From the NCBI RefSeq assembly GCF_004010195.1, contig NC_057718.1, positions 92,887,404 to 92,951,403 on the forward strand: a DNA stretch of 64,000 nt, given 5' to 3'. The translations under genes and the position numbers were made by a program. This DNA comes from Chiloscyllium plagiosum (Eukaryota). The notes under the pieces were generated by a model. It had not been told where the DNA came from. It did not search any database and was given only the letters and a program-made list of their open reading frames with translations. Shown here one piece after another: positions 7,630 to 55,373 of the stretch; position 1 is the first letter of the stretch, and each line of letters opens with the position of its first letter.

Positions 7630-7910
7630 AGTTAAAAATCACACAACACCAGGTTATAGTCCAACAGGTTTAATTGGAAGCACACTAGCTTTCGGAGTGA
7701 CGCTCCTTCATCAGGTGATTGTGGAGGGCTCGATCGTAACACAGAATTTATAGCTATAAATTGTGTTACGATCGAGCCCTCCACAATCACCTGATGAAAG
7801 AGCGTCACTCCGAAAGCCTGCGTGCTTCCAATTAAACCTGTTGGACTATAACCTGGTGTTGTGTGATTTTTAACTTTGTACACCCCAGTCCAACACCAGC
7901 ATCTCCAAAT
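7630..7910. mobile_element. Fold-back PLE-type insertion, family A
   Basis: Inverted arms meet with no spacer at 7753/7754 (AATTTATAG|CTATAAATT); TSD CATTCAACATAA at 7618-7629 and 7911-7922; hammerhead motif in each arm. Confidence 0.85.
7683..7717 (-). ncRNA. Minimal type I hammerhead ribozyme motif, family A
   Basis: Minus strand CAC CTGATGA A GGAG CGTCA CTCC GAAA GC TA GTG: core boxes, stem I CAC/GTG, stem II GGAG/CTCC, palindromic AGCT stem III, CUA cleavage triplet. Confidence 0.8.
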
Positions 7911-7952
7911 CATTCAACATAAGACATCTTTGTTCCCCTAATTAGTACTGAC

Positions 7953-8177
7953 TACTGTCAGTTCTGAAATAATGTGGTAGTAGTTCTGTCCTCGTGCATC
8001 CCATGTTATAAGAAAATCGTGTAATAGCAGCACCATTTAAATTAATGGGGCCAGAATTGCGTTATAACCAATACATGGTTTAAAACTTCATGCTTTAGAA
8101 AGAGTGTCCCCAATTCATCAATCGTGTTATAGCGAATTTGTGTTAACAAAACGTGCGTATTTCAACACGACCTGTGC
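7953..8177. mobile_element. Decayed Tc1/mariner (Tigger-like) MITE
   Basis: Imperfect terminal inverted repeats (CTGTCAGTTCTGAAATAATG and CGTATTTCAACACGACCTG) with internal repeats of a CGTGTTATA-like motif. Confidence 0.5.
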
Positions 8178-8204
8178 TTACATTTTATCATTAAGTAAGG
8201 AAAG

Positions 8205-8522
8205 TAGATGTGGCACAGCAGTTAGCACTGCTCCTCACAGCACCAGGGACCTGGGTTCAACTCCAGTTTTGGGTGACTCTCTGCCTTGAGATGGCTGTTC
8301 TTCCTGTGTCTGGGTGAGTTTCCTCCCACACTCCAAAGATGTGCATGTTCGGTGAATTGGCTGTGCTAATTGTCCCAGGATGTGTAGGTCAGGTGGATTG
8401 GCTGTGGTAAATGTGTGGTTACAGGGATTGAATGGGGCCCAGGTTTGTGTAGGATGTTTAGTCAGTCAATGCAGAGTCAATGGGCCAAATGGCCTCCTTC
8501 TGCACTATTGGGATTCTATTCA
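8205..8522 (+). mobile_element. HE1-type SINE, diverged
   Basis: GTGGCACAGCAGTTAGCACTGCT...GGGTTCAACTCC...GGGATTCTAT; matches the other copies. Confidence 0.8.
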
Positions 8523-8599
8523 ATGTGAAATGGGTACATGTTGCACCTTTATTATGGACAAATCGTTATCTTAAAGGTTGCGGACAGTGATTCCTCAAT

Positions 8600-8614
8600 G
8601 CTGCCCCCTCCTGG
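8600..8614 (-). promoter_or_regulatory. Candidate CTCF motif
   Basis: Minus strand CCAGGAGGGGGCAGC, one mismatch to the CCASYAGRKGGCRSY consensus. Motif match only. Confidence 0.35.
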
Positions 8615-10029: not shown

Positions 10030-10200
10030 ATGCTGCTGATGCTGCAAGTCTGAAAAAAAAACCCAGAGAATGCTGGGGAACCTCACAAGGCCTGGTAGTA
10101 TCTGATGAGGTGAGTCATTATGAAATATTAACTTTATTTCTCTCTCTGCAGTTGCTGCCCGACCTGCTGAGTTTCCCTAACTTTCTCTGCGTTTATTCCA
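10030..10200. mobile_element. Old fold-back PLE-type remnant, family C-like
   Basis: GATGCTG...AGAATGCTGGGGAACCTC is inverted against TGCTGCCCGACCTGCTGAGTTTCCC; CTGATGA...GAAATATT lies at the pivot. Confidence 0.55.
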
Positions 10201-10816
10201 CATTTTATCTATTTGTTCTCTGTCCTTAGGAGAACGATAACGAGTGTCATATTCTGGAGATTGTTTAGATTCCTTCAAAATATACTGGTATCAGTTTGTT
10301 GACTTGGTGCTTTCCAAATACTACCTGAGAGATTGAGAAGCACTTCAATGACATTGGATCATTTTATTAATCTTTCAACAGAACATTCTGTCTGTTCAGA
10401 AGCAGTTTTCTAATTACTTTTGGAGTGATCCACTTTTGTGTCTAAAATGGTAATGCTTGCTGTGTCTAAGATCTGAATTGGAGGAGTCAAACTACTCAGC
10501 CTTTTAAGTTTACTCTGCCATTTGATAAGATCACCGCTGATTTTGTTACTCCATATTTCCGCCTGCTCCCAGTAATCTTTTCACTCTCTTGTTTATCGAG
10601 AATCTAACGACCTCTGCCTCAAAAATATTTAAAGGTTCTCCCTCCACCACCTGTTGAGGAACAGACTTCCTTTGTGTGAAAATACAATCCAGCCCCTAGT
10701 TCCAGATTGTGTCAGAAGAGGAAACATCTTTTCCACATCCACCCTGTCAAGATCCCTCAGATACATAACTGTTTCAATCAAGTCTTCCCTTACTGTTCTA
10801 AACACCAGCAGACATA

Positions 10817-10940
10817 AGGCGAAAGTGAAAACTGCAGATGCTGGAGATTAGAGTCGAGACTGTGCTGCTGGAAAAGCACAGCAGGTCAGGCAGCATCCGA
10901 GGGTGCTGCCTGACCTGCTGTGCTTTTCCAGTACCACACT
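10817..10940. mobile_element. Very short fold-back PLE-type insertion, family B
   Basis: CTGGAAAAGCACAGCAGGTCAGGCAGCA is inverted against TGCTGCCTGACCTGCTGTGCTTTTCCAG; TSD CACCAGCAGACATAAG/CACCAGCAGATACAAG (10803-10818, 10941-10956). Confidence 0.85.
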
Positions 10941-11083
10941 CACCAGCAGATACAAGCCTAGCCTATTTTACCTTTCATCACAAGTCAACCAGTCCATTCT
11001 AGTTATTAGTCTAATAAAACTTCTCTGGACTGCTCACAATACATTCATAACCTCCCTTAAATAAAACAACCATACTGTACACA

Positions 11084-11705
11084 TGATTTGGAGACGCTGG
11101 TGTTGGACTGGGGTGTACAAAGTTAAAAATCACACAACACCAGGTTATAGTCAAACAGGTCTAATTGGAAGCACTAGCTTTCGAAGCACTGCTCCTTCAT
11201 CAGGTGTTTGTGGAATTTAAGATTGTAAGACACAGAATTTATAGCAAAAGTTTACAGTGTGGTGTAACTGAAATTATATATTAAAAAAGACCTGGATTGT
11301 TTGTTCAGTCTCTCATCTTTTAGAATGACCATGTTGGTTTCAGCTCTTTCAGATGTAAATCGCAAAACATTGTTTTAAAAGTTACATTCTCAAATGAACT
11401 TTAACAGTGGGCCGACATGACACCAATTGTCAAAGTTCACTTGAGAAGGTAACTTTTAAAAAAATGTTTTGCCATTTACTTATGAAAGAACTGAAACCAA
11501 CATGGTCATTCTAAAAGATGAGAGACTTAACAAACAATCCAGGTCTTTTTCAATATATAATTTCAATTACATCACACTGTAAACTTTTGTTTTAAATTCT
11601 GAGTCTTACAATCTTGTCCTCCACAATCACCCGATGAAGGAACAGCGCTCCAAAAGCTAGTGCTTCCAAATAAACCTGTTGGACTATAACTTGGTGTTGT
11701 GTGAT
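11084..11705. mobile_element. Fold-back PLE-type insertion, family A (arms about 280-320 bp)
   Basis: Arms inverted about 11408-11428; TSD TACTGTACACA at 11073-11083 and 11706-11716. Confidence 0.88.
11172..11206 (-). ncRNA. Minimal hammerhead ribozyme motif, family A
   Basis: Minus strand CAC CTGATGA A GGAGC AGT GCTTC GAAA GC TA GTG. Confidence 0.8.
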
Positions 11706-12286
11706 TACTGTACACAATACTCCTGATGTGATCTCTGTATATCTGAAGCACATTATCTATACTTCTGCATTCAATTCCCCTTGCAATAAACAATAACACT
11801 GTTAGCTTTTCTAATTACTGGCTGAATCTGATACCCACCTTTTATGATTTATTCTGAAGAGTACCAGATCCCTCTTCGTCTCAGAGTTTCTTCAACCTCT
11901 CACCATTTAGACAGACGTTCCTTTCTTAATCTTCCTGCAAACATGGCAGTTTCACATTTTCATGCATTGACATTCCTACATACTCCATTTCTCAAGTCTT
12001 TGGCTATTCACTTAACCTGTACAAATCCCTTACATCCTCTTCACAACTTAATAACAGACGTATCTTTGCCTCATCAACAAAATTAGCAACCGTACCTTTA
12101 GTCCCTTTATCTAAACCATTTATATAAGTTATAAAAATTTCATTAATCATTACTTCTTGCAACAAGAAACGATCTGTTTATATCTACGCTGTTTCGTGTT
12201 AGCCAACTAATCTTCTTTTCATGCCAATCTGCTGCCGCTTACACCATAAACTTTTATTTTCCACTGTGTCCTTTGATCTGGCACCT

Positions 12287-14772: not shown

Positions 14773-14777
14773 CCTGT

Positions 14778-14988: not shown

Positions 14989-15074
14989 GACACTTGCAAA
15001 TATCCAACCATTGGATGATGTAGACAGACCAGGAGCAGATTCTGAGTCTGAGGTTCCAAAATCTCATAAATGCT

Positions 15075-15375
15075 GGGTGGCACAGTGGTTAGCACAGCTG
15101 CCTCACGGCGCTGGAGACCTGGGTTCAATTCCCACCTTAGCCAACTGTCTGTGTGGAGTTTGCACATTACTCCCTGTGTTTCCTTCGGATGCTCCGGTTT
15201 CCTCCCACAGTCCAAAAATGTGCAGGTTAGGTGAATTGGCCATGCTAAATTGCCTGTAGTGTTAGGTGAAGGGGTAAAATGTAGAGGAATGGGTCTGGCT
15301 GGGTTACCCTTCGGAGGGTCGGTGTGGACTTGTTGGGCTGAAGGGCCTGTTTCCACACTGTAAGTCATCTAATCT
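15075..15375 (+). mobile_element. HE1-type SINE
   Basis: A box TGGCACAGTGG, B box GGTTCAATTCC, LINE-like tail. Confidence 0.9.
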
Positions 15376-15388
15376 GGGAGCGTCTGCG

Positions 15389-16131: not shown

Positions 16132-16227
16132 TTGGGGTCCAAATGTTGGAAAATGGTGTCAGGCTGAACCGCTGTAATTTGGCTTGTAAAGATGCAATTA
16201 TGTGCTATTAATTTATTATGCTGGTGG

Positions 16228-16300
16228 TTTCAAATAAACCCATTGGACTATAACCCAGTGTTGTGTGAGCTTCAACTTTGTCCATCCTAGTCCAAAAGCC
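16228..16300 (+). mobile_element. Family A PLE-type 3' fragment
   Basis: CAAATAAACCCATTGGACTATAACCCAGTGTTGTGTGA...CTTTGTCCATCCTAGTCCAA. Confidence 0.7.
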
Positions 16301-16460: not shown

Positions 16461-16551
16461 CTGATAGAAGGGCTTTTGGCAGAAACATCGACTCTCCTGA
16501 TCCTCAGATGCTGCCCGACCTGCTGTGCTTCTCCAGCACCAAACTCTTGAC
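16461..16551 (+). mobile_element. Family B PLE-type fragment starting at a decayed hammerhead
   Basis: CTGATAGAAGGGCTTTTGGCAGAAACATCGA...GATGCTGCCCGACCTGCTGTGC. Confidence 0.75.
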
Positions 16552-17060: not shown

Positions 17061-17096
17061 GCAAGTGGTAGGTGGGGTTGTGGTCTGTGATTATTA

Positions 17097-17306
17097 CTGG
17101 GTTGGAAATGTGTTGCTGGAAAAGCGCAGCAGGTCAGGCAGCATCCAGGGAACAGGAGAATCGATGTTTCGGGCATAAGCCCTTCTTCAGGCTTATGCCC
17201 GAAACGTCGATTCTCCTGTTCCCTGGATGCTGCCTGACCTGCTGCGCTTTTCCAGCAACACATTTCCAGCTCTGATCTCCAGCATCTGCAGACCTCACTT
17301 TCTTCA
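17097..17306. mobile_element. Fold-back PLE-type insertion, family B
   Basis: Near-identical inverted arms of about 80 bp; TSD TCTGTGATTATTA at 17084-17096 and 17307-17319; minus-strand CTGAAGA AGGGCTTATGCCC GAAA CATC at the pivot. Confidence 0.9.
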
Positions 17307-18409: not shown

Positions 18410-21400
18410 TGAGATCTCATGTGCCAGCAGAAATACTGTCACCAAGTCACCCTTTACTTACATGTGGAGAGTCCTTAACATTGCTCCAGCTCTCACAGAG
18501 CCAGATCTCAGGGTGACCAGGATGCCTGTTCGTATCTGTCAGCCAGGGCTCCCTGATTTGGCCAGTTCTCATTCAGGGAACTCATATTCTATGAGGTCCA
18601 CGAGGCTGACTTCATTACAATCACTAGATCCCGTCCCCTCTGAGTCCTAGGGCACCACTGGTTCTTTTTTTGTTGTTGTGGCTCCTCCAGGGGTGCTCAT
18701 CCAACTCAGCCTCTGATACGGGATGGCGTGTAACACACAGTAGCTCACTTCTTGTGCCTGGAACATCTCGGAAGAAATGCATTCTCTTCTTCATGCAGCA
18801 AAGATGAGGCAACAACATCCGCCGTGTTCACCTCATATTCTGAGGTATCATCAAAACTTGATGGAGAGGGAGAACCCACAGGTCCCGGAACAATCTGAAA
18901 GGCTGTGGAAGATCTGGGTACGTGTTTCTCCTGCACCGTTTGTGCATTTGCAGCTTTCATGTGGTCTATGTGTTTGTTCAGGACCATTGCACCAACTCAA
19001 ACTTTACATGTCACTAGACCTGACCTTGCGTCAACCACACCTCTTACCGATGCAGGGCCATTCCCGTGGTCCCTACACTAAACTTCATCCCCTGAAGTAA
19101 ACTGTCTCTCTCACTTATTGGAGTCTTCCATCTGGCATTGCCATTTCTGATGCCATTTTATCCTCCCCTCTAGTTCCAACAAGATCATATTTAACCTGGT
19201 GCAGAGTCTTCTCCCCATTAACAACTCTACTGGAGCTATCCCTGTAGTTGCGTGAGGGTAGTCCTATAATGAAATATGAACTGGGACACCTTTGTATCTA
19301 GTGAAGCTGTCGGCTGTTTCTTTAATCCTACATTCAAAGTTCGGACTGCTGTTTCCACCAGACCATTGGATGATGGGTAGTATAGTGCTGTCCTTATATG
19401 CTGAATACCGTTCATCTTTAGAAAGTACTCAAATTCCGTGTTTTTAAAAGATGGCCCATTATCTGTGACCAACACTTCCAGGAGTACTTGTGTTACAAAA
19501 GATGTGTGGTGTTTCTACAGCTGTCCCTGTGTTTGATGAATGAACTCTATGCATGCCCAGCCCCCATCACCACTGGCTATTTCAGTTTTGCCAGGAATGG
19601 ATCTTTCTTTGTCCAAAGTCTGATATTGTCGGCTGTGACTGGAAATGTGTCCAGAAAATTTAAAACTGTTTAGAACTCTTGCAGTGGTGGTAGTACTGGT
19701 GGTGTACCTGCCAGTGGGTGACGGCTCAATGCATCAGCATTTGCTACTTGGCCTCCTAGATGGTGATCCAACTTGTGCACTTAGTGCTAGACCCCATCGG
19801 TGGATTTGGCCTGAAGCTATGGGAGACACTCCCTTGTCCTCTTCAAGTAAACCCAGCAGAGGTTTGGGGTCCATTATTATTACAAATTTAAGTCTATAAA
19901 TGTATTGGTAGAACTTCCTGACTCCAAATCTGATTACCAAACCTTCCTTCGCAATCTGGGCGTATTTTGCTCTGCATTACCCAAGTCTTGAACGTTTACG
20001 CTTTTGGGCGTTCTTCACCATGAGGTAACCTATGAGCAAATACTATCCCGATGCCGTACGGGGAGGTATTGCATGTCAATACTAGATCTTGCTTGGGATC
20101 ATTTGTGCCAGCACTTTAGAGAATGATAGCTGTTCCTTCACCTCCCTGAAAGCTATGACTTGGCTACATGACAATTTCCAATGTTGGGCCATTTGTAAGG
20201 TGCTGGGATGAAGTCCAGGTTATTATGAATTTTCTATAATAATTCAGCAGCCTAAGGAAACACCTAAGCACCGGTACAGACATGGGAGTTGGGGCATCTT
20301 TGCCCTGACTTTATTCACCAATGATCTTGTTGACTCTGTAGCCCAAGAAGGTCATTTGGGGTGCCCAGAACACACATTTTTACCTTCTAAGGCACATGCT
20401 GGCCTGGGAGAAATATCTAATCATTCCGTCCAAGATCTCTAAGTGGCCCTATTGATCTTCCCTGTTGTTAGCGTGTCATCCAAATAAGTGGCGACACAGG
20501 CTAGACTTTGTAAAATGGTTTCCATGATCTGCTGAAAAATGGCACAGGCTGATAATACCCCAAATGGCAGTCTCTCACATATTGGCATGAACCCTTATAG
20601 GTATTAATTCTAGTATACTTCTGAAAATACCTCCTCTAACTGCAGTTGTAGGTACATGCATGGTCATGTCCAGCTTTGTGAAGGACAGCCCCCATGCCAG
20701 CTTTGTGCACCAGTCCTCCAGGCGAGACATTGGGTATCCAGCTGTAAGAAGTGGTTTACCATTTGATTAACATTCGCACATAGGCAAACCGACCCTCAGA
20801 CTTCATAATAGGGGCAGCATGGTGGCTCAGTGGTTAGCACAGCTGCCTCACAGCGCCGGGAACTCAGGTTTGATTCCAGCCTCAGGCGACTGTCTGCGTG
20901 GAGTTTGCACATTCTTCCCAGGTCTGCATGGGTTTCGTCCAGGTGCTCTGGTTTCCTCCTATAATCCAAAGATGTGCAAGTTAAGTGAACTGGCCATGCT
21001 AAATTGCCCATAGTGTTCAGGAATGTGTAGGTTTGGTGCATTAGTCAAGGGTAAAATGTACAGTAATAAGGGAGGGAAATGGGTTTGGGTGGGATACTCT
21101 TCGGAGGGTCGGTGTGGACTTGTTGGGCTGAAGGGCTTGATTCCACACCGTAGGGATTCTATGATAACAGGAACACCTGGAGCTGCCCATCCCACAAACT
21201 GGGCTAGTTTGACGATTTCTTCTCTCTCCAGCCTCTGGATTTCTGCCTCTACTTTTGCCCCGAAGGAAAATGGCATTGGGTGGCCCTTGAAGAATCTGGG
21301 AAGAGCTTCTTGGTCAACCTGAAAGCTGGCCTTGTCTCCTTTGACAGTCCCTAGAACGTCCTGAAAATCTTGTGGGTATTTAATTAGGACTTCACTCAGG

Positions 21401-22904
21401 CAGCCTATTTCTAATTGAAAAATGTTGAACTAATCAAGGTGAATCTCTCGCAACCAATTTCACCCCCATCAGGCTTGGGCCTGAGCCTTTCACTACAGTC
21501 AGTGGCAACTAAATCAGTTGCTTCTCAGAAGAGACTGGGACCGAAGTTGTACCCTTAATCTGTAAAGGTTTCCCAGTATAGGTTCTCAGTCTAGCTGAGG
21601 TTTTCCGCAAATGTAAGGGTTGGAGTAATGAGCAAATTTTGTTAAAGACTGTTTCTACGATCAAAGAAACAGCCACACGGGTGTGACCTCCATTCGAACT
21701 GGGGGACCATTTAATGAGAGGTTTATTTTGATTGGTGGTGAATTGGATGTTGCTGAGCAACTTAACTGATCCAAGGTGTAGGTGGACTTTTCGGGGTGAA
21801 CATTCTCCTGGATACTAGCCTATAAGTTCTCTTACTCAATTTAGGTCTTTTGTTGTCTCGAGTCTGCATACCAGCAGGAACTCTAATTGCTCGCTGGCCC
21901 AGATCCTGAAGAAAATTTTAACAGTTTGGCCGAAGTCTGGCTTTGTTTTGGGGTTTTGCTGCGGGCTGACCTAGAATCCCTCTGTTCAGGATATGTCCAG
22001 AGCAAGGCTTGCAAATGCCTTCACTCAAGTGGTGTTCCCCAAGGTCAGTTGGACTGGTGAGGGTGTTCACTTCCACTGGAATACCCTGTAACCCATAAGA
22101 TCCACTTGCTGCATTTTTCAATGATGGCCAGTTGTTGTATCTGTTTGAAGTCTAGTTGGGCTTCAGCTAGTAGGCACGTTTGCATAGTTCCATCATTAAT
22201 TCGACATACCTAATAATCTCTCAGCATCTCATTAAGGGTTAAATAAAACACACATGTCTCTGCCAGTCATCTTAAGTAAGTCAAAAATCCCGATATGGAC
22301 TCCCCTCATTTGCGAATTGCTGAGTAAAGTCAAAGTATCTCAGAATGAGAGGAGGCTTGGAGTCATTATATTCCTAAACTAAATTTGTCATCCCTTGAAA
22401 AGTTTTGGTATCTGGAGCCTCATGGAAAGTTAGGCTCCTAATAACCAAAACAGCTGCAGGACCACAGGCTGTCAGGAGAATTACTCGTTGCTCTTCATCT
22501 GTCCCAATATCATATGCCTGGAAAACACAACACATTCTTTCCCCATACTGATCCCAGTCTTCGACAACAGGACTGAATGAGTCAAGCTTCCCAAATGACA
22601 GCATGATGCCAGAGATGCTTACTCCAACTCAAAGACAATTATCGCGAGCGAGTTTCTTCAGGACTGTGTTTTTCTCTAATTGGCACTGAAATAACTCCAT
22701 GATGGCCGATATCCAGTCACGAAGTCACCCTTTACTTAGACTTAGAGAGTTCTTGACACTGATCCAGCTCCCTCAGAGCCAGCTGTCAGGATGTCTGACA
22801 TCCCTGTTTATAATCTGTCAGCCAGGTTCCCTGATTAGACCAGATTAACAGCCCCAGTAAAGGAACTCATATTCTATGAGGTTGACCTGGCTCAATCACA
22901 AACA
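18410..22904 (-). mobile_element. Decayed Ty3/Gypsy LTR retrotransposon
   Basis: Direct LTRs at about 18410-18628 and 22687-22904; Gag-like FGKLDSF...EDWDQYGERM (22374-22604); protease-region LRTYTGKPLQIKG; RT VATYLDD near 20480; RNase H-region DPKPLLGLL; integrase VTDNGPSF...YYPSSNGLVE (19236-19475); purine tract AGAGGGGACGGGA before the 3' LTR; many stops and frameshifts. Confidence 0.92.
20811..21163 (+). mobile_element. HE1-type SINE nested in Gypsy pol
   Basis: Full head-to-tail copy; flanks ATAATAGG/ATAACAGG may be a TSD. Confidence 0.92.
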
Positions 22905-23788: not shown

Positions 23789-24412
23789 TAGATCAGAGTG
23801 TTGCTGGAAAAGCCCAGCAGGTCAGGCAGCATCCAAGGAGCCAGAAAATCGATGTTTCAGGCAAACGCCCTTCATCAGGAATAGAGACAGGAAGCCTCCA
23901 GGGTGGAGAGATAAATGGGGGGGGGGCGCTGAGGGGGAGGTAGCTGGAAGGTTGGAACTGGGGTAAGATGGGGGAAGGGGAAATGAGGAAACTGGTGAAG
24001 TCCACATTGGTGCCCTGGGGTTAAAGTGTTCTGAGGGGGAAGATGAGGTGTTCTTCCACCAGGCATCGGTGGTGAGGGAGCGATGGTTGAGGAGGCCCAG
24101 GACCTGCATGTCCTCAGCAGAGTGGGAGGGGGAGTTGAAATGTTGGGCCACAGGGCGGTGTGGTTGATTGGTGCGGGTGTCGCGGAGATGTTCCCTAAAG
24201 TGCTCTGCTAGGAGGCGTCCAGTCTCCCCAATGTAGAGGAGACCGCATCGGGAGCAACAGATACAATAAATAACATTGGTGGATTGCAGGTGAAACTTTG
24301 ATGGATGTGGAAGCTCCTTTGGGGCCCTGGATGGAGGTGAGGGAGGAGGTGTGGGCGCAGGTTTTGCACTTCCTGCGGTGGCAGGGGAGGGTGTCAGGAA
24401 GGGAGGGTAGGT
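23789..24412 (-). mobile_element. PLE family B 3' fragment with GIY-YIG endonuclease (Neptune-like)
   Basis: Cys-rich linker CHRRKCKTCAH, then VIYCICCSRCGLLYIGETGRLLAEHFREH; downstream hammerhead ATTC CTGATGA AGGGCGTTTGCCT GAAA CATC (23848-23882, minus strand). Confidence 0.9.
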
Positions 24413-24502
24413 TGATATTGAATAATTTGTACAAAACAAGTGGAATGGAGGAGAGGAAAAGTAAAAAAAATCTAATCTAAAATAAAAAAATAAAAAATAA
24501 AG

Positions 24503-24855
24503 TTACTGTAGTCCTGCCAGAGCTCAGGGTTGCTCTCTCACCACAGAGAAGCAACTGATGGTGGCTTAAGCTGAGGCTGACCACACCCTCTGGTGAGGGG
24601 AGAGACTGGGAAGGAGAGTCCTTCCTGGCAATCTCAGCAGATGGGGTAGGTGAACCCACACTGTTGAAGGGCTTTTGCCTGAAACGTTGATTTTCCTGTT
24701 CCTCGGATTCTGCCTGACCTGCTGTGCTTTTCCAGCACCACTCTAATCTAGAATCTGGTTTCCAGCATCTGCAGTCCTTGTTTTTACCTAGTTGATTTTA
24801 ACCCACACTGTTGACATTACTTTGTATTACAAACCAGCCACCCTGCCACCTTAGA
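24503..24855 (-). mobile_element. tRNA-derived SINE-like element (third family), interrupted
   Basis: Minus head GGCTGGTTTGTAATAC...CAACAGTGTGGGTTCA is B-box-like; sequence is continuous across the 24668-24799 insertion. Confidence 0.5.
24668..24799 (+). mobile_element. Short single-arm family B PLE insertion
   Basis: TSD AACCCACACTGTTGA at 24653-24667 and 24800-24814; the insert begins at hammerhead stem II. Confidence 0.88.
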
Positions 24856-25200: not shown

Positions 25201-25857
25201 GGCCAATCAGCTCCTTATTGTGCTGTGCCATACCACATGATGGTTGATGGCCCTACCTCCATATGTGCACCCCTGAGTCACGCCTCATTAGTTGGGAACC
25301 TACCTACCCCTGCTTTAGAAATTCAATGACTTCCATTGTTCTACGAGAAAGAGAATTCCTAAGATTTTTGACTTGGAGAGAAACAATCTCCTCATTTCTG
25401 TGTCAACTGGGGAGCCCCATTAAGGATTATAACACTGTTGCCCACCCAGGCAGAGAGCAAAAGAAAATTCAGCATTGAGTAGCATTAGTGGGAGTTAGGT
25501 TGGATAAGGAATTGGCAATTAAGGCTGCAAAAAGGCTATGCAAAATGTTCTGTCTCGGTTTTTTTCAACCAAGGAGAAAAGAGGAGTGTTATCAGATCTG
25601 GAAAGAGAACTGTGTTTCAACGATGAATTGTGCTCACCATTCACATCACCTGCAGCATGTCTATTGCACAGCTGCACAAACCTAAGGTAAATAGATCTCA
25701 GAGGCCAGATAGGACCCATTCAAGGATTTTAATGGAATGAATGAAAGAGGAACTTGGAGCAGGTATTTGGCACAAGTTTTCCTTCACTTACCTTATACTA
25801 GCAAGCTGCTGGGCCGAGGACAAGCCAGGGGTCATTTCTCAAAGTGGCCCAGAATCT

Positions 25858-25955
25858 AAAGCAAATACAGAAAGCGCTGGAAAGACTCAGTAGGTCTGCT
25901 ACTGTCTGTGGATAGCGAAACAGAGTTAAGGTATCAAGTCAGATATGACTTTTGT
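25858..25955 (-). mobile_element. Family C PLE-type terminal fragment
   Basis: GCTGGAAAGACTCAGTAGGTCTG...ACAGAGTTAAGGTATCAAGTCAGATATGACT; similar to 47077-47173. Confidence 0.55.
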
Positions 25956-30050: not shown

Positions 30051-30559
30051 CAGCCGTTGGACAATTGTAGAGGCTGAGGCTCCTTTTAACTACCACCCCT
30101 TAGGGTCTCCATACCTATCTCAACTACAGCCACTCACTCCTATCACTATCTAATTTGAGCAATGCAACTGCCTCTTGGAGTGAGTGCCAGGCTAATTTTC
30201 TTCTTCCCTGAACAGTTTTCTCCAGGACAAAATGTGTGAAGAATCAAAGGAAGAGTGGTCTATAAAATAAACCTCCTACAGGTTGTTAAGTGAGACTGGC
30301 CAAGCAGTTACTCCAAGGTATCCAAGGATGAACTCCATATAATCTAGGCAATCAGTAGAACACTTCATTCTATCTTTGAAGCAATTAAGTTGTAAAGTCT
30401 TTAAATCTAGCTTAGGTCAAGAGAACAAGCAATTATTAACTTGTAAACATGTTACAATCCCTCCTATTCCTGCGGAATCACTTTGTTAAAAGTTAAGGGA
30501 TATTGCACTTAATGGACTTAATATTGAGTTCAACACCTTCAAATTGTGAATTTCCTCCC

Positions 30560-30890
30560 TTTCTTTTCGCTTGTTACATTGTGTTATCATATCCTCTCTC
30601 CTCTTCGCCCAAACCAGTGGGACTGTCTATCCTTTCAGGTCTGTTAGGAGACACACCACACTTCTGCCATTCTCACATTCTGGTCACTTAATCTGAACCA
30701 TCAACATCTTTTCTCCAACAGCACCCTACATCCACTACCCTCACCCCCCCACCCCCCCAACCACTACAGCAAAAATGCTCTCCTCCCCAAATTTCACTTC
30801 AGCTCTGATGAAGACTCATATAGACTCGAAATGTTAGCTTGTTCTCTCTTCATGGATGCTGTCTGATCCACTGTGATCTCCAGCTTTGTT
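30560..30890 (+). mobile_element. Family C PLE-type terminal region
   Basis: C-rich tract, then a hammerhead, then GGATGCTGTCTGATCCACTG; same layout as family B. Confidence 0.6.
30801..30839 (+). ncRNA. Minimal hammerhead ribozyme motif, family C
   Basis: AGCT CTGATGA A GACTC ATATA GACTC GAAA TG TT AGCT: stem I AGCT/AGCT; stem II is one change from GAGTC/GACTC. Confidence 0.65.
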
Positions 30891-31901
30891 AATTTCATTG
30901 TAAAAGTGGAATTGCTCTGAATTCCAAGTTGAATTGTTGGGAATGGAGAACAAAAGGAAATGAGATTTTCAGGCATGAGGGTCATTAAGAAGTAAAGCTC
31001 ATCTCTTGGCTGTAGTCACAATCTTTTAATCATGATCAGAGGAAAACACTTTTCCTCTATTTTCAATGAGAACTTTTTACAAAGACTGTGTAAGAAATTC
31101 CTTTCCCACTACAATGCTGTTTGAACGGACAGATTTCCAGAAGTTAGAAGCTAAATTGTGGCCACACTAGCCATTAGAGACACAGCTAAATGAATCACTT
31201 CTTGGCAAGTTCTCAGAGACTGAGAAAAGAAAAAGGAAGCCAGCTCTGATATCACTACCTGAACAGAAGAAATCAGAATCCGAGACCCAACAGATAACTG
31301 GTTGCGATTAGATTCATGGATTTGACACTGTTGACGCTAGAGATTGCATTCCAGGAAAGGAATGATTAAAGTCATCATGTTGCATGTCAGGATGAGGTTG
31401 TGTTAGCTGAGAATCTTATTAAACACAGAGAATTGCACTTTTGGATTACCAAGCTGGTTAAAAGTTATAGCCGTCAGTTATCTCAACAATTACTCTTACA
31501 AATAATTTATCAGTTTATAACTTCAGATTCTGGCTCCCGCTATTGTTCATACTCAAGTTCCAATTATCCCTGAATTATTCATGTGAACATCTTTGCTTAC
31601 TCTGCTGAGCAACTCTGTCCAATAATGATTGATGGCTGAAATGTCAAATAGCCAATTACACTTGTGCATGTTTGTATTCCCAACTTTGGGTTAAATTGAT
31701 TTTGTAACCTGTACATAACACTATGTGCATGACTTGTCATGTAGTTTCTTCCTTGAGGAATTGACCAGAAGTTCACTTACTTAACAAGTGAACCTATCTG
31801 AGGAGTAATAATTTAATTTGATCTGAAATGCTGAGTGCAACACCGTTTAATGAAGAGACAAACATCATTCATCCCTAATGCCGTGTTGACCCTGTTCGTT
31901 A

Positions 31902-32065
31902 ATGATTTGGAGGTACCGGTGTTGGACTGAGGTGGACAAAGTTAAAAATCACACAACACCAGGTTATAGTCCAACAGGTTTATTTGATGAAGGAGCAGTG
32001 CTCCAAAAGCTAATGCCTCCAAATAAACCTGTTGGATTATGACCTGGTGATGTGGGATTTAAAAC
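31902..32065. mobile_element. Short fold-back PLE-type insertion, family A
   Basis: CCAGGTTATAGTCCAACAGGTTTATTTG is inverted against CAAATAAACCTGTTGGATTATGACCTGG; the plus arm starts at TGATGAAGGAGCAGTGCTCC. Confidence 0.8.
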
Positions 32066-32249: not shown

Positions 32250-33442
32250 TGTTGTGGTCCTGTTCGCCGAACTGGGAATTTGTGTTGCAGACATCTTGTC
32301 CCCTGTCTAGGTGACATCCTCAGTGCTTGGGAGCCTCCTGTGAAGTGCTTCTGTGATGTTTCCTCCGGCATTTATAGTGGTTTGTCTCTGCCGCTTCCGG
32401 TTGTCAGTTTCGGCTGTCCGTTGCAGTGGTCGGTATATTGGGTCCAGGTCGATGTGCTTATTGATTGAATCTGTGGATGAGTGCCATGCCTCTAGGAATT
32501 CCCTGGCTGTTCTCTGTTTGGCTTGTCCTATAATAGTAGTGTTGTCCCAGTCAAACCCATGTTGCTTGTCATCTGCATGTGTGGCTACTAAGGATAGCTG
32601 GTCGTGTCGTTTTGTGGCTAGTTGGTGTTCATGGATGCGGATCGTTAGCTGTCTTCCTGTTTGTCCAATGTAGTGTTTTGTGCAGTCCTTGCATGGGATT
32701 TTGTACACTACATTGGTTTTGCTCATGCTGGGTATCGGGTCCTTCGTTCTGGTGAGTTGTTGTCTGAAAGTGGCTGTTGGTTTGTGTGCCGTTATGAGTC
32801 CCAGTGGTCGCAGTAGTCTGGCCGTTAGTTCGGAAATGCTCTTGATGTATGGTAGTGTGGCTAGTCCTTTGGGTTGCGGCATGTCCTCGTTCTGTTGTCT
32901 TTCCCTTAGGCATCTATTGATGAAATTGCGCGGGTATCCGTTTTTGTACAAAATCCCATGCAAGGACTGCACAAAACACTACATAGGACAAACAGGAAGA
33001 CAGCTAACGATCCGCATCCATGAACACCAACTAGCCACAAAACGACACGACCAGCTATCCTTAGCAGCCACACACGCAGATGACAAGCAACATGAGTTCG
33101 ACTGGGACAACACTACTATTATAGGACAAACCAAACAGAGAACAGCCAGGGAATTCCTAGAGGCATGGCACTCATCCACAGATTCAATCAATAAGCACAT
33201 CGACCTGGACCCAATATACCGACCATTGCAGCGGACAGCTGGAACTGACAACCGGAAGCGGCAGAGACAAACCACTATAAATGCCGGAGGTAACATCACA
33301 GAAGCGCTTCACAGGAGGCTCCCAAGCACTGAGGATGTCACCTAGACAGGGGATGAAACATCTGTAAAACAAATTCCCAGCTTGGCGAACAGAACTACAA
33401 CAACGAGCACCCAAGCTACAAATCTTCTCACAAACCTTGAAC
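32250..33442. mobile_element. Penelope/Poseidon-type PLE (family D), head-to-head 3' halves encoding GIY-YIG endonuclease
   Basis: Minus arm reads open as NGYPRNFINRCL...ATLPYIKSISE...VVYKIPCKDCTKHYIGQTGRQLTIRIHEH...REFLEAWH; plus arm repeats it from YKIPC; TSD TCTTATTGGCTGA at 32237-32249 and 33443-33455. Confidence 0.95.
33326..33365 (+). ncRNA. Minimal hammerhead ribozyme motif, family D
   Basis: GCA CTGAGGA TGTCACCTAGACAGGGGAT GAAA CA TC TGT; the mirror copy at 32287-32326 (-) has different substitutions. Confidence 0.75.
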
Positions 33443-36135: not shown

Positions 36136-36547
36136 AATAGGCTAGGGTTGTTATCCCTGGAGTTTCGGAGACTGAGAGGTGACCTTATAGAGGTTTATAA
36201 AATCATGAGGGGCATGGATAGGATAAATAGACAAAGTCTTTTCCCTGAGGTGGGGGAATGCAGAACTAGAGGGCATAGGTTTAGGGTGAGAGAGACCTAA
36301 GGGGCAACGTTTTCACGCAGAGGGTGGTACTTGTATAGAATGAGCTGCCAGAGAAGGTGGTGGAGGCTTGTACAATTGCAACATTTAAAAGGCATCTGGA
36401 TGGGTATATGAATAGGAAAGGTTAGGAGGGATATGGGCCGGGTGCTAGCAGGTGGGATTAGATTGAGTTGGGATATCTGGTTGGCATGGACAAGTTGGAC
36501 CGAAGGGTCTGTTTCCATGCTGTACATCTCTGTGACTCTTTGACTGT
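36136..36547 (+). mobile_element. CR1-type LINE 3' fragment
   Basis: Closely matches 2503-2927. Confidence 0.92.
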
Positions 36548-46715: not shown

Positions 46716-47076
46716 CTATTATAGTTGGCCTGAGTTGCAAACTTTCACCTCTGACTGTAAGATTCTACATCTGATGAATATACAACTTTCTACGGTAAAC
46801 ACATGGCTTGAGGTTCTGCAGGATATTTTAACTCAGAAGAGATGAGGTATAGACTTTGTTTGGAAGCCCACATGTCCCAGTTCCTCCCTGACAGTTTCAA
46901 ACTACTCACCCCCTCGAAAGTCAAGGTGAGGGGGGAATCACCAACTAGAATTAATATTCCACAATGTATACCCCATTCCACAATGATGTATACCATTGCA
47001 CCAATTGTAATGATATACAATTATACCATTGCAGCAGTCCTCTGACATGCAAAAGGCTTGCCAGCATATTATCAGG

Positions 47077-47173
47077 AACAAAAATAGACATTGTTAGAAA
47101 AACTCAGCAGGCCTAGCAGCATCTGTGGAGAGAAAGCAGAGTGAACATTTCCAGTCCAATGACCCTTGTTCAG
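47077..47173 (-). mobile_element. Family C PLE-type fragment beginning at a decayed hammerhead
   Basis: Minus strand CTGAACAAGGGTCATTGGACTGGAAATGTTCAC...CAGATGCTGCTAGGCCTGCTGAG. Confidence 0.65.
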
Positions 47174-47629: not shown

Positions 47630-47929
47630 AGATTAGATTAGATTCCCTACAGTGTGGAAACAAGCCATTTGACCCAACTAGTCCACACCGACCCTCCGAA
47701 GAGTAACCCGCCCAGACCCATTTCCCTCTGACTAATGCACCCAACACTATTGGCAATTTAGCATGACCAATGCACCTGACCTGCACATCTTTGGACTATG
47801 GGAGGAAACCCATGCAGACACGGGGAGAATGTGCAAACTCCACACAGACAGTTACCCAAGGCTGTAATTAAACCCGGGTCCCTGGCGCTGTGAGGCAGCA
47901 TTACTAACCACTGAGCCACCGGGGTGCCC
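47630..47929 (-). mobile_element. HE1-type SINE
   Basis: (TTAGA)n tail and full body. Confidence 0.9.
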
Positions 47930-49375: not shown

Positions 49376-49480
49376 ATTCCTGATGAAAGGCTCATGCCTG
49401 ATTCGTCGATTCTTCTGCTCCTTGGATGCTGCCTGACATGCTGTGCTTTTCCAGCACCAGACATTTCGACTCTGATCTCG
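49376..49480 (+). mobile_element. Short family B PLE-type insertion starting at the hammerhead
   Basis: ATTC CTGATGA AAGGCTCATGCCT GATT CGTC GATTC...GACTCTGATCTC; the GAAA box is mutated. Confidence 0.8.
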
Positions 49481-50057: not shown

Positions 50058-51388
50058 ACATTATAGAATCATAGAATCATAGTCATACAGCACGGAAACA
50101 GATCCTTCGGTCCAACTCATCCATGCTGGTCAGACATCCCATTCTCACAAAGTCCCATTTGCCAGCATTTGGTCCATCTCCCTCTGAACTGTTCCTATTC
50201 AGGTGCCCACCCAGGTGCCTTTTAAATGTCGCAAATGTACCAGCCACCAAAATGTCCTTTGGCACCTCGTTCCATACATGCACAACCCTTTGCATGAAGA
50301 AGTTACTCCCCGGGTCCACTTGAAACTTTTCCCCTCTCATCTTAAACCTATGCCCTCTTATTTCGGACTCCCCCACATGAGGAAAAAGAAGTTGGCTATT
50401 CACCCTATCCATACCCCTCATGATTTCATAAACCTTTATAAGGTAATCTTTCAGCTTCTGACATTCCCTTCAGCTCCAGGGAAAAAGGCCCCAATCTAAG
50501 CAGCCTCTTTCTTTAACTCAAGCCCTCCCGTCCCAGAAACATCCATGTGAATCTTTTCTGCACCCTCTCATGTTTTACAACTTCCTTCCTATAGATGGGC
50601 GACTACAATTATACACAGTATTCCAAAAGTGGCCTCACCAATGTCCAGTACAACCACATCATGATATCTCAGCTCATATACTCAGTGCTATGACCACTGA
50701 AGGCAAGAGTGCCAAACACCTTCTTCACTACCCTATGTGGCTCCACTTTCAAGGAGCTATGCACTTGCACCCCTAGGTCTCTTTGTCGGCAACACTCCCC
50801 AGGACCCTATCATTAACTGCTTAAGTCCTGTCCTGGTTTGTCTTACCAAAATGCAATGCCTCATATTTATCAAAATAAACTCCAATTACCACTCCTTGGC
50901 GCATTGGCCGATCTGATTAAGGTCCCATTGTACTCTGAGATAAACTTATTCACTGTCCTCTGCGCCACGTATTTTGGTGTCATCTGCAAACTTACTAACC
51001 ATGCCTCTTTAATTCATATCCAAATCATTTATATAAATGACAAAAAGCATTGCACCCTACACTCATCCTTGTGGCACACCGCTGGTCACAGGCCTCCAGT
51101 CTGAGAAGCAACTCTCCACCACCACTCTCTGTCTCCTACCTTCAAGCCAATTGTGTATTCAATTGGCTAGCTTCCCTTGGGTCCCATGTGATCTAATCGT
51201 ACTAACCAGTCTACCATGCAGAACCTTGGTGAATGCTTTGCTGAACTCAATATAGACAATGTTTACTACTCTGCTTTCATCAATCTTCTTTGTCACTTCT
51301 TCAAAAAACTCAATCATGTTAGTGTGGCATGATTTCCCATGCATGAAGCCATGCTGACAATCCCTGATCAGTCCTTTCCTTTCTAAAA
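50058..51388 (-). mobile_element. CR1-type LINE 3' 1.3 kb with RT
   Basis: QHGFMHGKSCHTNMIEFFEEVTKKIDE...VYIEFSKAFTKVLHGRL; (ATCATAGA)n tail. Confidence 0.93.
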
Positions 51389-51840: not shown

Positions 51841-51931
51841 TCAAGAGTGTGGTGTTGGAAAAGCAGAGCAGGTCAGGCAACATCCGAGGAGCAAGAGAAT
51901 CGATGTTTCGGGCAAAAGCCCTTCATCAGGA
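51841..51931 (-). mobile_element. Short family B PLE-type insertion with hammerhead at its 5' edge
   Basis: Minus strand TTC CTGATGA AGGGCTTTTGCCC GAAA CATC GA; probable TSD GAATGTTCATCAG/GAAGGTTCACCAG. Confidence 0.82.
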
Positions 51932-52504
51932 AGGTTCACCAGGCCAGGGAAAGTCTCCACCCATTCCCACAAGGACCACTATGACTGAAGGAAAAGGGTT
52001 TTGATGGGGCCATTTGCATTCTTTGAGATTAATGCCTTCATCAATCTTTGACTGACATATGGGCTCTTAATCTCTCTGCCACCATTGGACAAAGACAAGG
52101 ATCAAAGATGTAATCGATTACCGGCTTTAATGAGTGTTAAACAGCACTCATTTTTATGACTTCATTGAACCCATCAATTTTTCCCATCTTCTTAATTCCA
52201 AGGTATAAGTTTTTTTGCATGTATGAGTACCTAGCAAGAAATAATTAGGGCAAAAGGGTCCAAAGCAAACCCCCAGAGAAATGAGTTGCATAATTGGAAT
52301 TAAAAGACTGTAAAATGGGAACATCAAAATGGTTTGTGGGGGAAGGGTTAGAGCACTGAGCCGATCAAACCCCTTCTGTTATTCAATGAAATCTAAGAGG
52401 TAACAGCCCTGTGAGATATAATCAGTTTTACTGGGTGACAAAGGCCAAAAAATATTAACACTTTGAACCTCAGTAGGATGCAGTCTTAGGGGTTACAAAG
52501 GGAT

Positions 52505-53719
52505 CAGGATTAGAGTGGTGCTGGAAAAGCACAGCAGGTCAGGCAGCATCTGAATAGCAACAGGTCATGAGGATGGTGCTGAGCTGGAAGGTTGGAACTG
52601 GGGTAAGGAGGGGTGAGGGGAAATGAGAAAACTGGTGAAGTCCATATTGATGCCCTGGGGTTGAACGGTCCCGAGGCGGAAGACGAGATATTCTTCTTCC
52701 ACGTGTCGGGTGGTGAGGGAGTGTTGGTGGAGGAGGCCAAGGACCCGTATGTCCTCAGCAGAGTGGGAGGGGGAGTTGAAATGTTCGGCCACGGGGCGGT
52801 GGGGTTGATTGGTGCGGGTGTCCCGGAGCTGTTGTCTGAAGTGCTCTGTGAGAAGGCGTCTGGTCTCCCCACTGTAGAGGAGACTGCATTGGGAGCAATG
52901 GATACAATAAATGACATGTGTGGAAATGCAGGTGAAACTTTGATGGATGTGGAAAGCTCCTTTGGGACCTTGGACGGAGGTGGAGGGGGAGGTGTGGGCT
53001 CAGTTTTGCAATTCCTGCGGTGCCAGGAGGGGAGGGTGAGTTGTTGGGGGGGTGTGGACCTGACTAGGTGTTCATGGAGGGAACAGTCTCTGGAAAGTGG
53101 ATGGGGTGGTGAGGGAGATATATCCCTGGTGGTGGGGTCCATTTGGAGGTGGCAGAAATGTTGGCGGATGATCATACCAATCAACCCCACTGCTCCATGG
53201 CCAAACATTTCAACTCCCCATCCCACTCTGCCGAGGACATGCAGGTCCTGGGCCTCCTCCACCGCCAATCCCTCACCACACGATGCCTGGAGGAAGAACG
53301 CCTCATCTTCCACCTTGGGACCCTTCAATCCCATGGCATTAATGTGGCCTTCACCAGTTTCCTCATTTCCCCTTACCCCACCTTACCCCAGTTCCAACCT
53401 TCCAGCTCAGTACCATCCTCATGACCTGTCACAACTGTCAATCTTTGTTCCCACCTTTCCATTCCACCCTCATCTCCGACCTATCACCTTCACCCCCACC
53501 TCCATCCACCTATTGCACTCTCAGCTACCTTCTCCCCAGCCCCACCTTCTCCCATTTATCTCTCCATCCCCAAGGCTCCCAGCCTCATTCGTGATGAAGG
53601 GCTTTTGCCTGAAACGTCGATTTTCCTGCTCCTCAGATGCTGCCTGACCTGCTGTGCTTTTCCAGCATCACTCTAATTTTGACTCTAATCTCCAGCATCT
53701 GCAGTCCTCACTTTCGCCT
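52505..53719. mobile_element. Fold-back PLE, family B, with GIY-YIG remnant
   Basis: Minus arm to about 53172 and plus arm from about 53173 both encode HFNSPSHSAED...EEExLxFxLGT; TSD GG(T/C)TACAAAGGGAT at 52491-52504 and 53720-53733; hammerhead at about 53587-53621 with the first C mutated. Confidence 0.92.
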
Positions 53720-54265
53720 GGCTACAAAGGGATGTCACTTCATTGTGTCTTTCATCATTACACCTGTCTGAATCTTGAAAGTGTAGTTTCCAGCATTTAT
53801 CTGTGTCAAGCAGCCAGAAAATCTACCCGCTATCAATAGGGTGCTCAGGTCACTTGTGAAATTCAATGAAAAAAAATTACTGGTTGGTTGCCCCTCCTTT
53901 AATATCCTTTCCATTCTCTCTGGAAAGAATGTCTGATTCTATGCCTGATCACATGTAACAACCCATCATTGGCTATCCCCCAATAGGGCCCATTTGTCCT
54001 CGTTTGTGGTCAGAATTCTATTTCTTAATCACTGGAAGCATATCTAGTCTGTGCTGAATCCACAAGAGCTCTGATATAGAGAGAACTTCCATCTTCTTAG
54101 ATAGTTGCGCTATATATATTGAAGTGTTGCTATTAGTTAAAAACAGGTTGAACTATCTCTATGAAGTGGCTCACAGAACCAGTAGTTCACTAAAAAGTCA
54201 AAACACAGAGTTTGACTGCATTACTGTTAACTCAGAACTATCAACCCATGAAGATCTTTCGAATT

Positions 54266-54589
54266 CGGGTGGTATGGTAGCACAGTGGTTAGCATTGCTA
54301 TTTCACAACCTCAGGGGCCTGGGTTTGATTCCAGCCTCGGGCAACTGTGTGGAGTTTGCACATTCTCCCATGTCTGTATGGGTATCCTCCCACAGTCCAA
54401 AGACACGCAGGTTAGGTGGATTGGCTGTGCAAAATTGCCCATAATGTCTAGTGGTGTGTAGGTTAAGGGATTAGCCATGGCAAATGTAGGGTTAAAAATT
54501 AGGGTGGGTGTGGGTGGGGCACTCTTTGGGGAGTTGGTGTGGACTCAATGGATTAACTAGCCTGCTTCTACACTGTATTGATTCTATGA
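54266..54589 (+). mobile_element. HE1-type SINE
   Basis: GGTAGCACAGTGGTTAGC...GGTTTGATTCC...ACACTGTATTGATTCTATGA. Confidence 0.88.
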
Positions 54590-54843
54590 GTCTGAATATA
54601 TGACTCAAATTATGCAAAGCTTTCTGAAGATCTGTGAATGTTTTGAGTGATATTGGCTTTGGCAAAAAGGTGAAACTGCACAACCTAATTTTGCCAACAA
54701 ACACTCCTCTGAGTGAGCCAACAGGGGATGAATCTAGGGTTCAACATTGCTTGAAAAAAATGGACTGCAGTCACAAGGATCCTTCACAAATGACATTGCA
54801 AAAGGCAGCTTAGCATTGCACGGTATTCATCTGAACCAGGCTG

Positions 54844-54933
54844 CTGAAGAAGGGCTTATGCCCGAAACGTCGATTCTCCTGTTCCCTGGATGCTGCCTGA
54901 CCTGCTGCGCTGTTCCAGCAACACATTTTCAGC
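54844..54933 (+). mobile_element. Short family B insertion starting exactly at an intact hammerhead core
   Basis: CTGAAGA A GGGC TTAT GCCC GAAA CG TC GATT...; the 5' strand of stem I is missing. Confidence 0.85.
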
Positions 54934-55157
54934 GCCTGCCTTATGCAGCCAGACAGAGAGTCCCTGATATTGTTGTGCTTCCCACGATGTACGATCAAGT
55001 TTGGAGGAGCCTATGAGGTTTTTCCAAGGCATTTTCAGTACAAGTTTGAAGTAGGTTTCTTTGTATTTCTTCCAGTGCATACATACACTTGCGCATGTGT
55101 AAAATGCAACTGCATGAAGCCTTACTTATAAGTTCATGAGTTCATGAGATATAGGAG

Positions 55158-55373
55158 GAGAAAGTGAGGTCTGCAGATGCTGGAGATCAGAGATGGAAAT
55201 GTGTTGCTGGAAAAGCGCAGCAGGTCAGGCAGCATCTAGGGAACAGGAGAATCGACGTTTCAGGCATTAGCCCTTCTTCAGGAATGAAGAAGGGCTAATG
55301 CCCGAAACGTCGATTCTCCTGTTCCCTAGATGCTGCCTGACCTGCTGCGCTTTTCCAGCAACACATTTCCATC
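55158..55373. mobile_element. Fold-back PLE-type insertion, family B
   Basis: Near-identical arms; perfect TSD TCATGAGATATAGGAG at 55142-55157 and 55374-55389; hammerheads back to back at the pivot. Confidence 0.92.
55251..55285 (-). ncRNA. Minimal hammerhead ribozyme motif, family B
   Basis: Minus strand ATTC CTGAAGA AGGGCTAATGCCT GAAA CG TC GAT; palindromic ACGT stem III, GUC triplet; stem I is weak. Confidence 0.7.

Follow-up and report, generated by a model that had tools for sequence, protein, structure and literature searches.

The stretch analysed here is a 64,000-nucleotide (nt) window of the genome of the shark Chiloscyllium plagiosum (NCBI RefSeq assembly GCF_004010195.1, contig NC_057718.1, positions 92,887,404 to 92,951,403 of the forward strand), which contains many short ends from retrotransposons called Penelope-like elements (PLEs), with motifs of the hammerhead ribozyme (HHR). 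Four families, termed A to D, are minimal type I hammerheads, predicted to self-cleave, that lie in the pseudo-long terminal repeats (pLTRs) of PLEs, and the copies in the window are for the most part decayed insertions, probably reverse-transcribed from RNA that the ribozyme had left uncut. Window coordinates are used throughout, and positions of junctions and tails are counted relative to the predicted hammerhead cut.

Hammerhead motifs in the window

The core boxes of the motif (CUGANGA...GAAA) are located at 7714-7690 (-) and 11203-11179 (-) for family A, at 17190-17167 (-), 23878-23855 (-), 51929-51906 (-), 54844-54867 (+) and 55281-55258 (-) for family B, at 30805-30831 (+) for family C, and at 33329-33358 (+) for family D. 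A descriptor consisting of both boxes exactly and a 4-bp stem II matches the window eight times, as against 0, 0, 0, 0, 0 and 1 times across six shuffled windows; the match at 10102, one of the eight, is a decayed copy from a further family (F). To extend the count, an unselected sample of 650 kb was used, comprising the window, the adjoining 200 kb and 40 scattered 10-kb stretches, none of them picked by motif, with 264 kb of it being the window and its neighbourhood. This sample contains 50 sites with boxes and a 4-bp stem II (0-1 in shuffles), and 32 sites that also have a palindromic 15.1-16.1, compared with 0 in five shuffles. A further box match, at 49484 (-), was rejected as a copy of C, being the reverse of a decayed B tail.

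Altogether, 29 copies of A to D were mapped in the window, most of them decayed. The boxes with U16.1 and H17 are intact in 9/29, while boxes, palindrome and stem I are all intact, as judged by eye, in just three (those at 7714-, 11203- and 55281-), and no intact tandem of ribozymes occurs among the 29. The positions of the core boxes agree with an earlier reading of the window from its letters (the original prediction), and all four families it had named are real, yet a fifth, F, has three decayed copies at 47071-47173 (-), 10101-10205 (+) and 25853-25940 (-). A hammerhead search, which it had proposed as a check, recovered the motifs well above the shuffled windows when run with the descriptor. 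An Rfam scan of the window returned no hammerhead model even at E<=1, giving just spurious matches to miRNA hairpins.

Conservation of the fold

The majority sequences of genomic copies agree with the motifs first described for A (n=46), B (n=72), C (n=24) and D (n=73), including those of C and D, which are decayed in the window and had been partly reconstructed. The core boxes C3-A9 and G12-A15.1, together with U16.1 and H17, are present in the majority of copies of all four families, the full pattern being found in 26/46 A, 40/72 B, 16/24 C and 53/73 D copies, and H17 is A, C or U in the majority sequences, never G. Stem II is closed by G10.1-C11.1 with one extra base after A9; this pair is G-C in seven of eight representative copies and G-U in the remaining one, which is decayed. 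Stem III is a palindromic 15.2-16.2 pair without loop 3, with G-C in A, C-G in B, C, D, E and G, and a CpG-decayed pair in the F copy.

Three further families were detected in the same genome, namely E, which is D-like, F, with a stem I of 5-6 bp, and G (example loci L046:2929-2958 (+), L209:4109-4134 (+) and L086:1218-1196 (-)). Across the families, stem I displays compensatory changes, with 2.1-1.1 being C-G, U-A or A-U and 2.2-1.2 being A-U, U-A or C-G, and these positions are paired in every family. When 17 copies were aligned by MAFFT, stem II came out in the wrong place for D and E; pairing was therefore scored on a table anchored on the core, with one natural copy for each of the seven families. 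Here, 48/56 variable cells of stems I-III are paired, as against 27.0 +/- 2.9 when the 3' partners are shuffled among families, and 0/20000 shuffles reach 48; as the seven families share ancestry, the count is a strong hint and not a probability. Conservation of core and flank within families (0.96-0.98 versus 0.80-0.95) was set aside as evidence, because of neutral decay, because subfamilies inflate the variation of the flanks, and because the copies were found via the core.

Two points of the original prediction, that stem sequences vary while pairing and core persist and that stem III is palindromic, are thus borne out by the shuffled partners and by the 32 palindromic sites. Its stem pairing holds in the compensatory changes across families and falls short in family B, whose stem I has just two consecutive pairs. 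Likewise, its assignment to minimal type I hammerheads of the dimer type is right, in view of a stem III that cannot close in the monomer, because the loop would be 2 nt, and with the two same-strand copies carried by full-length elements.

Carrier elements

The putative hammerheads of A to D sit in the pLTRs of four PLE families. In the window, GIY-YIG-type endonuclease (EN) frames lie upstream of D at 32947-33342, and also on its inverted arm, and upstream of B at 23825-24502 and 53113-53421. Genomic copies of all four families have a common sharp 3' end and a variable 5' end; the longer copies of A and C extend into endonuclease frames, and those of A also into reverse transcriptase (RT) motifs. 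RT and EN motifs lie in broken frames in A, B and C, while a genomic copy of D has both in one frame of 465 amino acids (RVT_1, E 1.4e-7; 1/10 frames above cutoff). Long open frames listed for the genomic copies were not intact open reading frames (ORFs) on inspection.

Full-length elements have two same-strand ribozyme copies 2.5-4.5 kb apart. The D element at locus L161 is full-length, with a direct repeat of 430 nt, two cores 2503 nt apart and an in-frame ATG at A9/stem II, and direct pLTRs of D also occur at loci L159 and L165. Same-strand pairs of pLTRs were found at 9/12 fetched loci for B and 6/8 for A, and in A, B and D the ribozyme is found a second time, at the ORF's 5' end. A comparison of 5' with 3' pLTRs for similarity gave fractions of 0.03, 0.06, 0.28 and 0.65 for genuine D elements, with many of the listed pairs being unrelated neighbours.

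A CX2-5CxxC linker between RT and EN, resembling a zinc finger, is encoded at loci L107 and L101 for A and L104 for C, and by eye in the B frame at 24195-24476 of the window and at locus L097; the regular expression missed the window B copy owing to its frameshift. This linker is missing from D, the hammerhead of which overlaps the start of the ORF. As having or lacking the linker distinguishes clades in the available portion of Craig et al. 2021 (PMC8557442), A, B and C appear to be Neptune-type and D Poseidon-type, an assignment made by motifs alone, with the linker also shared by Nematis.

The D ribozyme is triple-coded (33329-33358 and L161), in that three things overlap there: the final codons and stop of EN, the in-frame ATG of the ORF that follows, and stem II. 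At another locus, L231, three D ends lie within 730 nt, two of them on the same strand 226 nt apart, with private variants in common. Regarding relatives, the best protein matches are unnamed RT proteins of sharks and flatworms; among named relatives, Chiloscyllium punctatum (89-93% identity) and Stegostoma tigrinum (59%) supply the proteins closest to that of D. Among the best 120 of 1327 matches of the D protein (L161:870-2570 +), it is parasitic flatworms, not other vertebrates, that rank next after sharks, with Dicrocoelium at 50%, Schistosoma at 48% and Spirometra/Sparganum at ~40-45%. This affinity to flatworms possibly reflects horizontal transfer or database bias.

Copies and neighbouring repeats in the window

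Head-to-head pairs dominate the copies of family A. The pair of short PLE ends at 7628..7913 has an intact core at 7714-7690 (-), with the predicted cut at 7686/7685, and a decayed core at 7791-7815 (+), and the pair at 11074..11706 has an intact core at 11203-11179 (-) and a mutated one at ~11631-11655 (+). A short inverted pair at 31902..32060 is truncated within the ribozyme, an older inverted pair at 59049..59505 has both cores mutated, and a tail-only fragment is found at 16220..16295 (+).

The copies of B are more varied in form. Inverted pairs lie at 17103..17306 (core 17190-17167 (-), palindrome CpG-decayed), at 55157..55375 (intact core 55281-55258 (-), plus-strand arm truncated within the first box) and, older and decayed, at 56713..56932, and a tail-only hairpin at 10831..10940 has both arms beginning downstream of the predicted cut. 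Longer pieces include a 5'-truncated element at 23797..24412 (-), consisting of a CX4CxxC linker and a frameshifted GIY-YIG remnant followed by the core 23878-23855 and the tail, and an element at 52504..53720 whose 5' part is inverted, with GIY-YIG remnants on both strands, a mutated core at 53591-53614 (+) and a tail. Short copies begin at the core at 16461..16541 (+, decayed) and 24661..24804 (+, extending into the 5' region of the ORF), or have 5' junctions at -32 (49376..49466, +, decayed) and -31 (51848..51932, -, core 51929-51906). The short copy at 54844..54931 (+) starts exactly at C3, with boxes, stem II and palindrome intact and the 5' strand of stem I missing.

Family C is represented by a 3' end at 30515..30897 (+), with decayed stem II and palindrome around the core 30805-30831 and a predicted cut at 30835/30836. 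Family D comprises an inverted arm at 32250..32946 (-), with a remnant of RT thumb and GIY-YIG, a mutated core at 32323-32294 and a short tail (+40), and a direct arm at 32945..33442 (+), with the GIY-YIG C-terminus, its stop within stem II, a CpG-decayed core at 33329-33358, a predicted cut at 33362/33363 and a long tail (+80). As the two ribozymes of an inverted pair lie on opposite strands, the dominant pairs of the window cannot supply a dimer partner. Inverted 5'-truncated neighbours were also flagged for 27/49 A and 34/94 B copies of the unselected sample. In all, 171 arms were counted in this sample, 49 of them from A, 98 from B, 13 from C and 11 from D. If the sample is representative, extrapolation to the genome of 3.56 Gb gives ~0.9 million insertion arms.

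Among the neighbouring repeats, broken frames at 19236-21814 (-) contain, by eye, integrase-, RT- and protease-like words of a long terminal repeat (LTR) retrotransposon interrupted by a short interspersed element (SINE). What we take to be 3' ends of CR1-like long interspersed elements are abundant, lying at 476-730, 2335-2928, 36140-36545, 50071-50493 and 61053-61473, and presumably a tRNA-like SINE family accounts for 899-1186, 15062-15380, 20807-21170, 47633-47929 and 63022-63327.

3' tails and 5' junctions

Each family ends at two main 3' sites, namely +53/+92 in A (n 59), +54-63/+86 and also +99 in B (n 50), +65/+97 in C (n 26) and +40/+79 in D (n 83), with 32-39 nt between the two main sites in all four. 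Overall, copies end 40-100 nt beyond the predicted cut, and the RNA template of each such insertion was therefore unbroken at the 3' cut site.

A first measure of 5' extent was confounded by inverted pairs and was redone against long non-inverted references. In the unselected sample, 41/91 B and 21/49 A arms have their 5' junction between -40 and -21, with a sharp drop beyond, the bins flanking -40 holding 18 then 1 in B and 13 then 1 in A. Among non-inverted copies with junctions in -130..+29, 22/40 in B (p 1.6e-10) and 6/17 in A (p 0.014) fall in this zone, the p values being set against a uniform null, which is crude; each arm of an inverted pair was counted by itself. The flank is duplicated by 11-14 nt in 6/25 piled non-inverted B copies, and the piled ends of B are therefore true junctions. 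Fresh samples anchored on core and tail place 21/29 C, 16/29 A and 1/29 D junctions in -49..-24.

The predicted cut itself is rarely a starting point. Of the long copies reaching the 5' part of the ORF (25 each of A, B and D, the B copies being picked near the junction and A values of -135 marking where the reference ends), 0/75 begin 5 nt or less from the cut, and near-full-length copies start at -45 to -28 in B, -36/-35 in A and -34 in D. Junctions at -2..+8 make up 9/20 of those in -20..+29 in B (p 0.019 uncorrected) and 6/16 in A (p 0.12), and those at or just past the cut are mostly arms of inversions or internal deletions.

The initiator of transcription has the consensus YYANWYY. A similar context is seen in B, C, F and G, where pyrimidines precede the A that opens the pile or stem I.

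Four sequencing runs were also inspected. Of the upstream loose ends of B in these runs, the one at -32 has the strongest support (flank agreement 0.33-0.46), and joints of the deletion and go-back kinds fall at -39 to -29 of B, as is expected if the RT jumps templates on reaching the 5' end of the RNA. For example, contigs of L133:948 from several runs contain joints from 829-840, 984, 1016 and 1133-1150 that land at -39 to -29. One class of joints gives a head-to-tail unit of ~205 nt, possibly a seed for a retrozyme. In the poly(A) single-cell run X20, 1158 reads of D and 1904 of B were found, mostly continuing into unrelated flanks at the tail sites, which is host read-through, and run X21 had no reads for the families probed.

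Proposed mechanism and alternatives

It is likely that transcription of the Neptune-type families begins with the first A of stem I or immediately upstream of it, in the initiator-like context of B, C, F and G, and that a tail site serves the RT for internal priming, as shown in vitro for the Poseidon element of the anole. Copies of the ordinary 5'-truncated form would come from priming at the 3' tail. From the 5' tail, which is identical, the RT would run off the 5' end of the RNA after 85-135 nt and yield solo-ribozyme copies, two of which, joined head to head, would form the hairpins. Two ribozymes of one transcript, or of two transcripts, may form a double hammerhead via the AGCU/ACGU palindrome, probably slowly and with the help of protein. 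The capped leader, and in D the start codon with it, would be lost through this double hammerhead, which would be auxiliary processing and not the source of most templates. The more specific claim, that the Neptune-type hammerhead is the very 5' end of a capped mRNA with the first base of stem I as initiator, that the solo hammerheads, numbering hundreds of thousands in this genome, are run-off cDNAs primed at the 5' tail site, and that the ribozyme is a decapping switch between translation and silencing and not a template-maker, stands at about even chances.

Besides the crude null mentioned above, several observations weigh against this mechanism or parts of it. D displays no 5' pile, limiting the start-site model to the Neptune-type families, and A fits the initiator poorly, with no clean match. 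A point in its favour, as a possible trace of a cap, is that the non-element base before the start A, where it is a purine, is G in 18/24 pooled cases versus 41% expected (p 0.0008; non-inverted 9/12, p 0.019), but this excess is small, uncorrected and not significant family by family, and half of the cases are inverted junctions, at which the G may come from the opposite arm. Seamless copies longer than one unit (B 3/25, A at least 5/25, D 4/25) need either read-through or a circle. The loose end of B at -32 partly reflects subfamily divergence upstream of the core, and the X20 reads contain no start or end pile, with the library type showing 5' ends poorly and the species possibly differing. 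Dimer folding puts the double hammerhead of intact copies at -11 to -18 kcal/mol, with the best dimer 7-17 lower, so that nearest-neighbour modelling does not favour it over other dimers, a result that speaks neither for nor against it. With respect to the carriers, Pfam GIY-YIG matches, found for 2/5 frames, are below the curated cutoff (E 0.054 and 0.0067, the latter for the B element at 23797..24412), and no 5' pLTR of C was found in the loci examined.

The original prediction had held that active elements used tandem copies to cut, and possibly circularise, their RNA. The model of Cervera and De la Pena has cleavage by both ribozymes, ligation of the monomer to a circle and more than one round of copying by the RT. 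The seamless copies are in favour of this route, and a circle would account for the tails past the cut; ligation of a D circle would restore the start codon overlapping A9/stem II (L161), and there is the small excess of B junctions near the cut. Read-through from tandem copies, however, explains the seamless copies equally well, and a circular template offers no explanation for stops at -40..-21, the zone in which ~45% of A and B copies begin. With 3' ends 40-100 nt past the cut, 0/75 long copies starting there and A, B and C piling up ~25-40 nt upstream, cutting and circularisation are unlikely as the general source of copies; cleavage may be a minor route, in view of the few junctions near the cut.

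It is also doubtful that the 5' pile reflects pausing or fold-back of the RT, or nicking by an endonuclease, at the edge of the ribozyme instead of the 5' end of the RNA. Microhomology around the first core box recurs at many inverted junctions, and the endonuclease of PAc, the Anolis carolinensis Poseidon element, has a preference for an ATT motif close to the pLTR of PAc itself (PMC11167929), with the B pile likewise beginning with ATT. Yet the A and C piles do not begin with ATT, and a stop induced by structure is expected on the 3' side of the stems, not past them. Near-full-length copies moreover begin in the same zone, and G is in excess before the start A, both of which argue for an RNA end.

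A fold retained for protein binding, as a promoter or for control of translation, with cleavage lost, would suit a stem I of 2-4 pairs, the missing stem III and the weak predicted dimer. HHR mutants leave PAc insertion in vitro unimpaired (PMC11167929), Naiads thrive without canonical HHRs according to the available part of PMC8557442, and 8/9 Xenopus dimers failed to cleave in the accessible sections of bioRxiv 2026.07.22.740005. This explanation is nonetheless quite improbable, as the catalytic positions, H17 and the palindromic stem III are kept across seven families while the stems change, and PAc cleavage was lost and rescued with C3/G8 mutants. Finally, that the short copies form a separate, non-autonomous family (a non-LTR retrozyme or SINE) amplified from short masters is very improbable, since the copies, although mostly 85-135 nt with common ends in A, B and C and amounting to the extrapolated ~0.9 million arms, are collinear with the pLTR-ORF junction of autonomous elements, no head-to-tail array of hammerhead-bearing non-coding units occurs in the window, and just 8 same-strand pairs <600 nt apart exist among the 171 copies.

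Relation to known systems and significance

Minimal hammerheads were described in the pLTRs of metazoan PLEs by Cervera and De la Pena 2014 (PMC4209133), with the same motif, a palindromic stem III and a model of dimers and circles. In the portions examined, that paper shares with the present copies a type I core with an extra base between 9 and 10.1, G10.1-C11.1, a palindromic 15.2-16.2 without loop and a short stem I, as well as multiple covarying families in each genome, with most motifs solo and some lying on opposite strands at distances of 100-700 bp, and fish Poseidon and Neptune elements. Unlike those hammerheads, the ones found here have a stem II of 4-7 bp. The same portions ascribe solo motifs to truncation, without a map of 5' junctions, and list no shark. 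Small PLE-associated hammerheads cleave as dimers, weakly for other minimal HHRs, according to the parts available of a review (PMC6765202) and of PMC4209133.

The closest experimental parallel is PAc (Frangieh et al. 2024, PMC11167929), for which uncut RNA is the main substrate, cleavage needs protein, and the PLE tail is tied to two internal RT start sites, with internal priming in vitro. D resembles PAc in having an in-frame ATG at the start of stem II, with the cut 28 nt downstream in D and 26 nt in PAc, and in having two tail sites ~40 nt apart, an apparently uncut RNA template and no reads at the cut. That study differs in treating one Poseidon element in vitro, with no Neptune-type element and no in vivo census of 5' ends. 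Similarly, the Neptune and Penelope/Poseidon EN+ PLEs of PMC8557442 have, in the sections available, a C-terminal GIY-YIG, partial tandems, an inverted 5'-truncated copy and a tail of 30-40 bp, and their clades match the zinc-finger-like linker of A, B and C and its absence from D. The Penelope element of D. virilis has an internal promoter with initiator, as stated in the accessible part of PMC2377424.

Li, Clavereau and Pollet (bioRxiv 10.64898/2026.07.22.740005) report, in the part consulted, non-LTR retrozymes derived from PLE pLTRs with type I HHR repeats, including one chondrichthyan. Such retrozymes are tandem non-coding units, in contrast to the dispersed solo or inverted pieces of coding elements found here. 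No literature on shark PLE hammerheads was found by a search from which most subscription journals, Repbase and some supplements were absent, and likewise none on a 5' junction, initiator or cap pattern of PLE hammerheads, most subscription journals again lying outside the search.

The hammerhead finding itself repeats the 2014 result in a new genome, and A to D are new members of the PLE hammerheads already described. The role of these ribozymes is still debated (PMC11167929 and, in the portion available, PMC8557442), and the insertion arms extrapolated for this single genome are a natural archive of the RNA that served as template. The 5' pile provides a base-precise prediction of the start site for three Neptune-type families (-32 in B, -35 in C and -37 to -39 in A), with the Poseidon family D as a built-in contrast. 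If copies primed at the 5' tail do run off the end of the RNA, this would explain the abundance of solo minimal hammerheads in animal genomes, and if the pile is indeed the 5' end of the transcript, the genome would preserve evidence of where transcription starts, of the cap and of a template left uncut.

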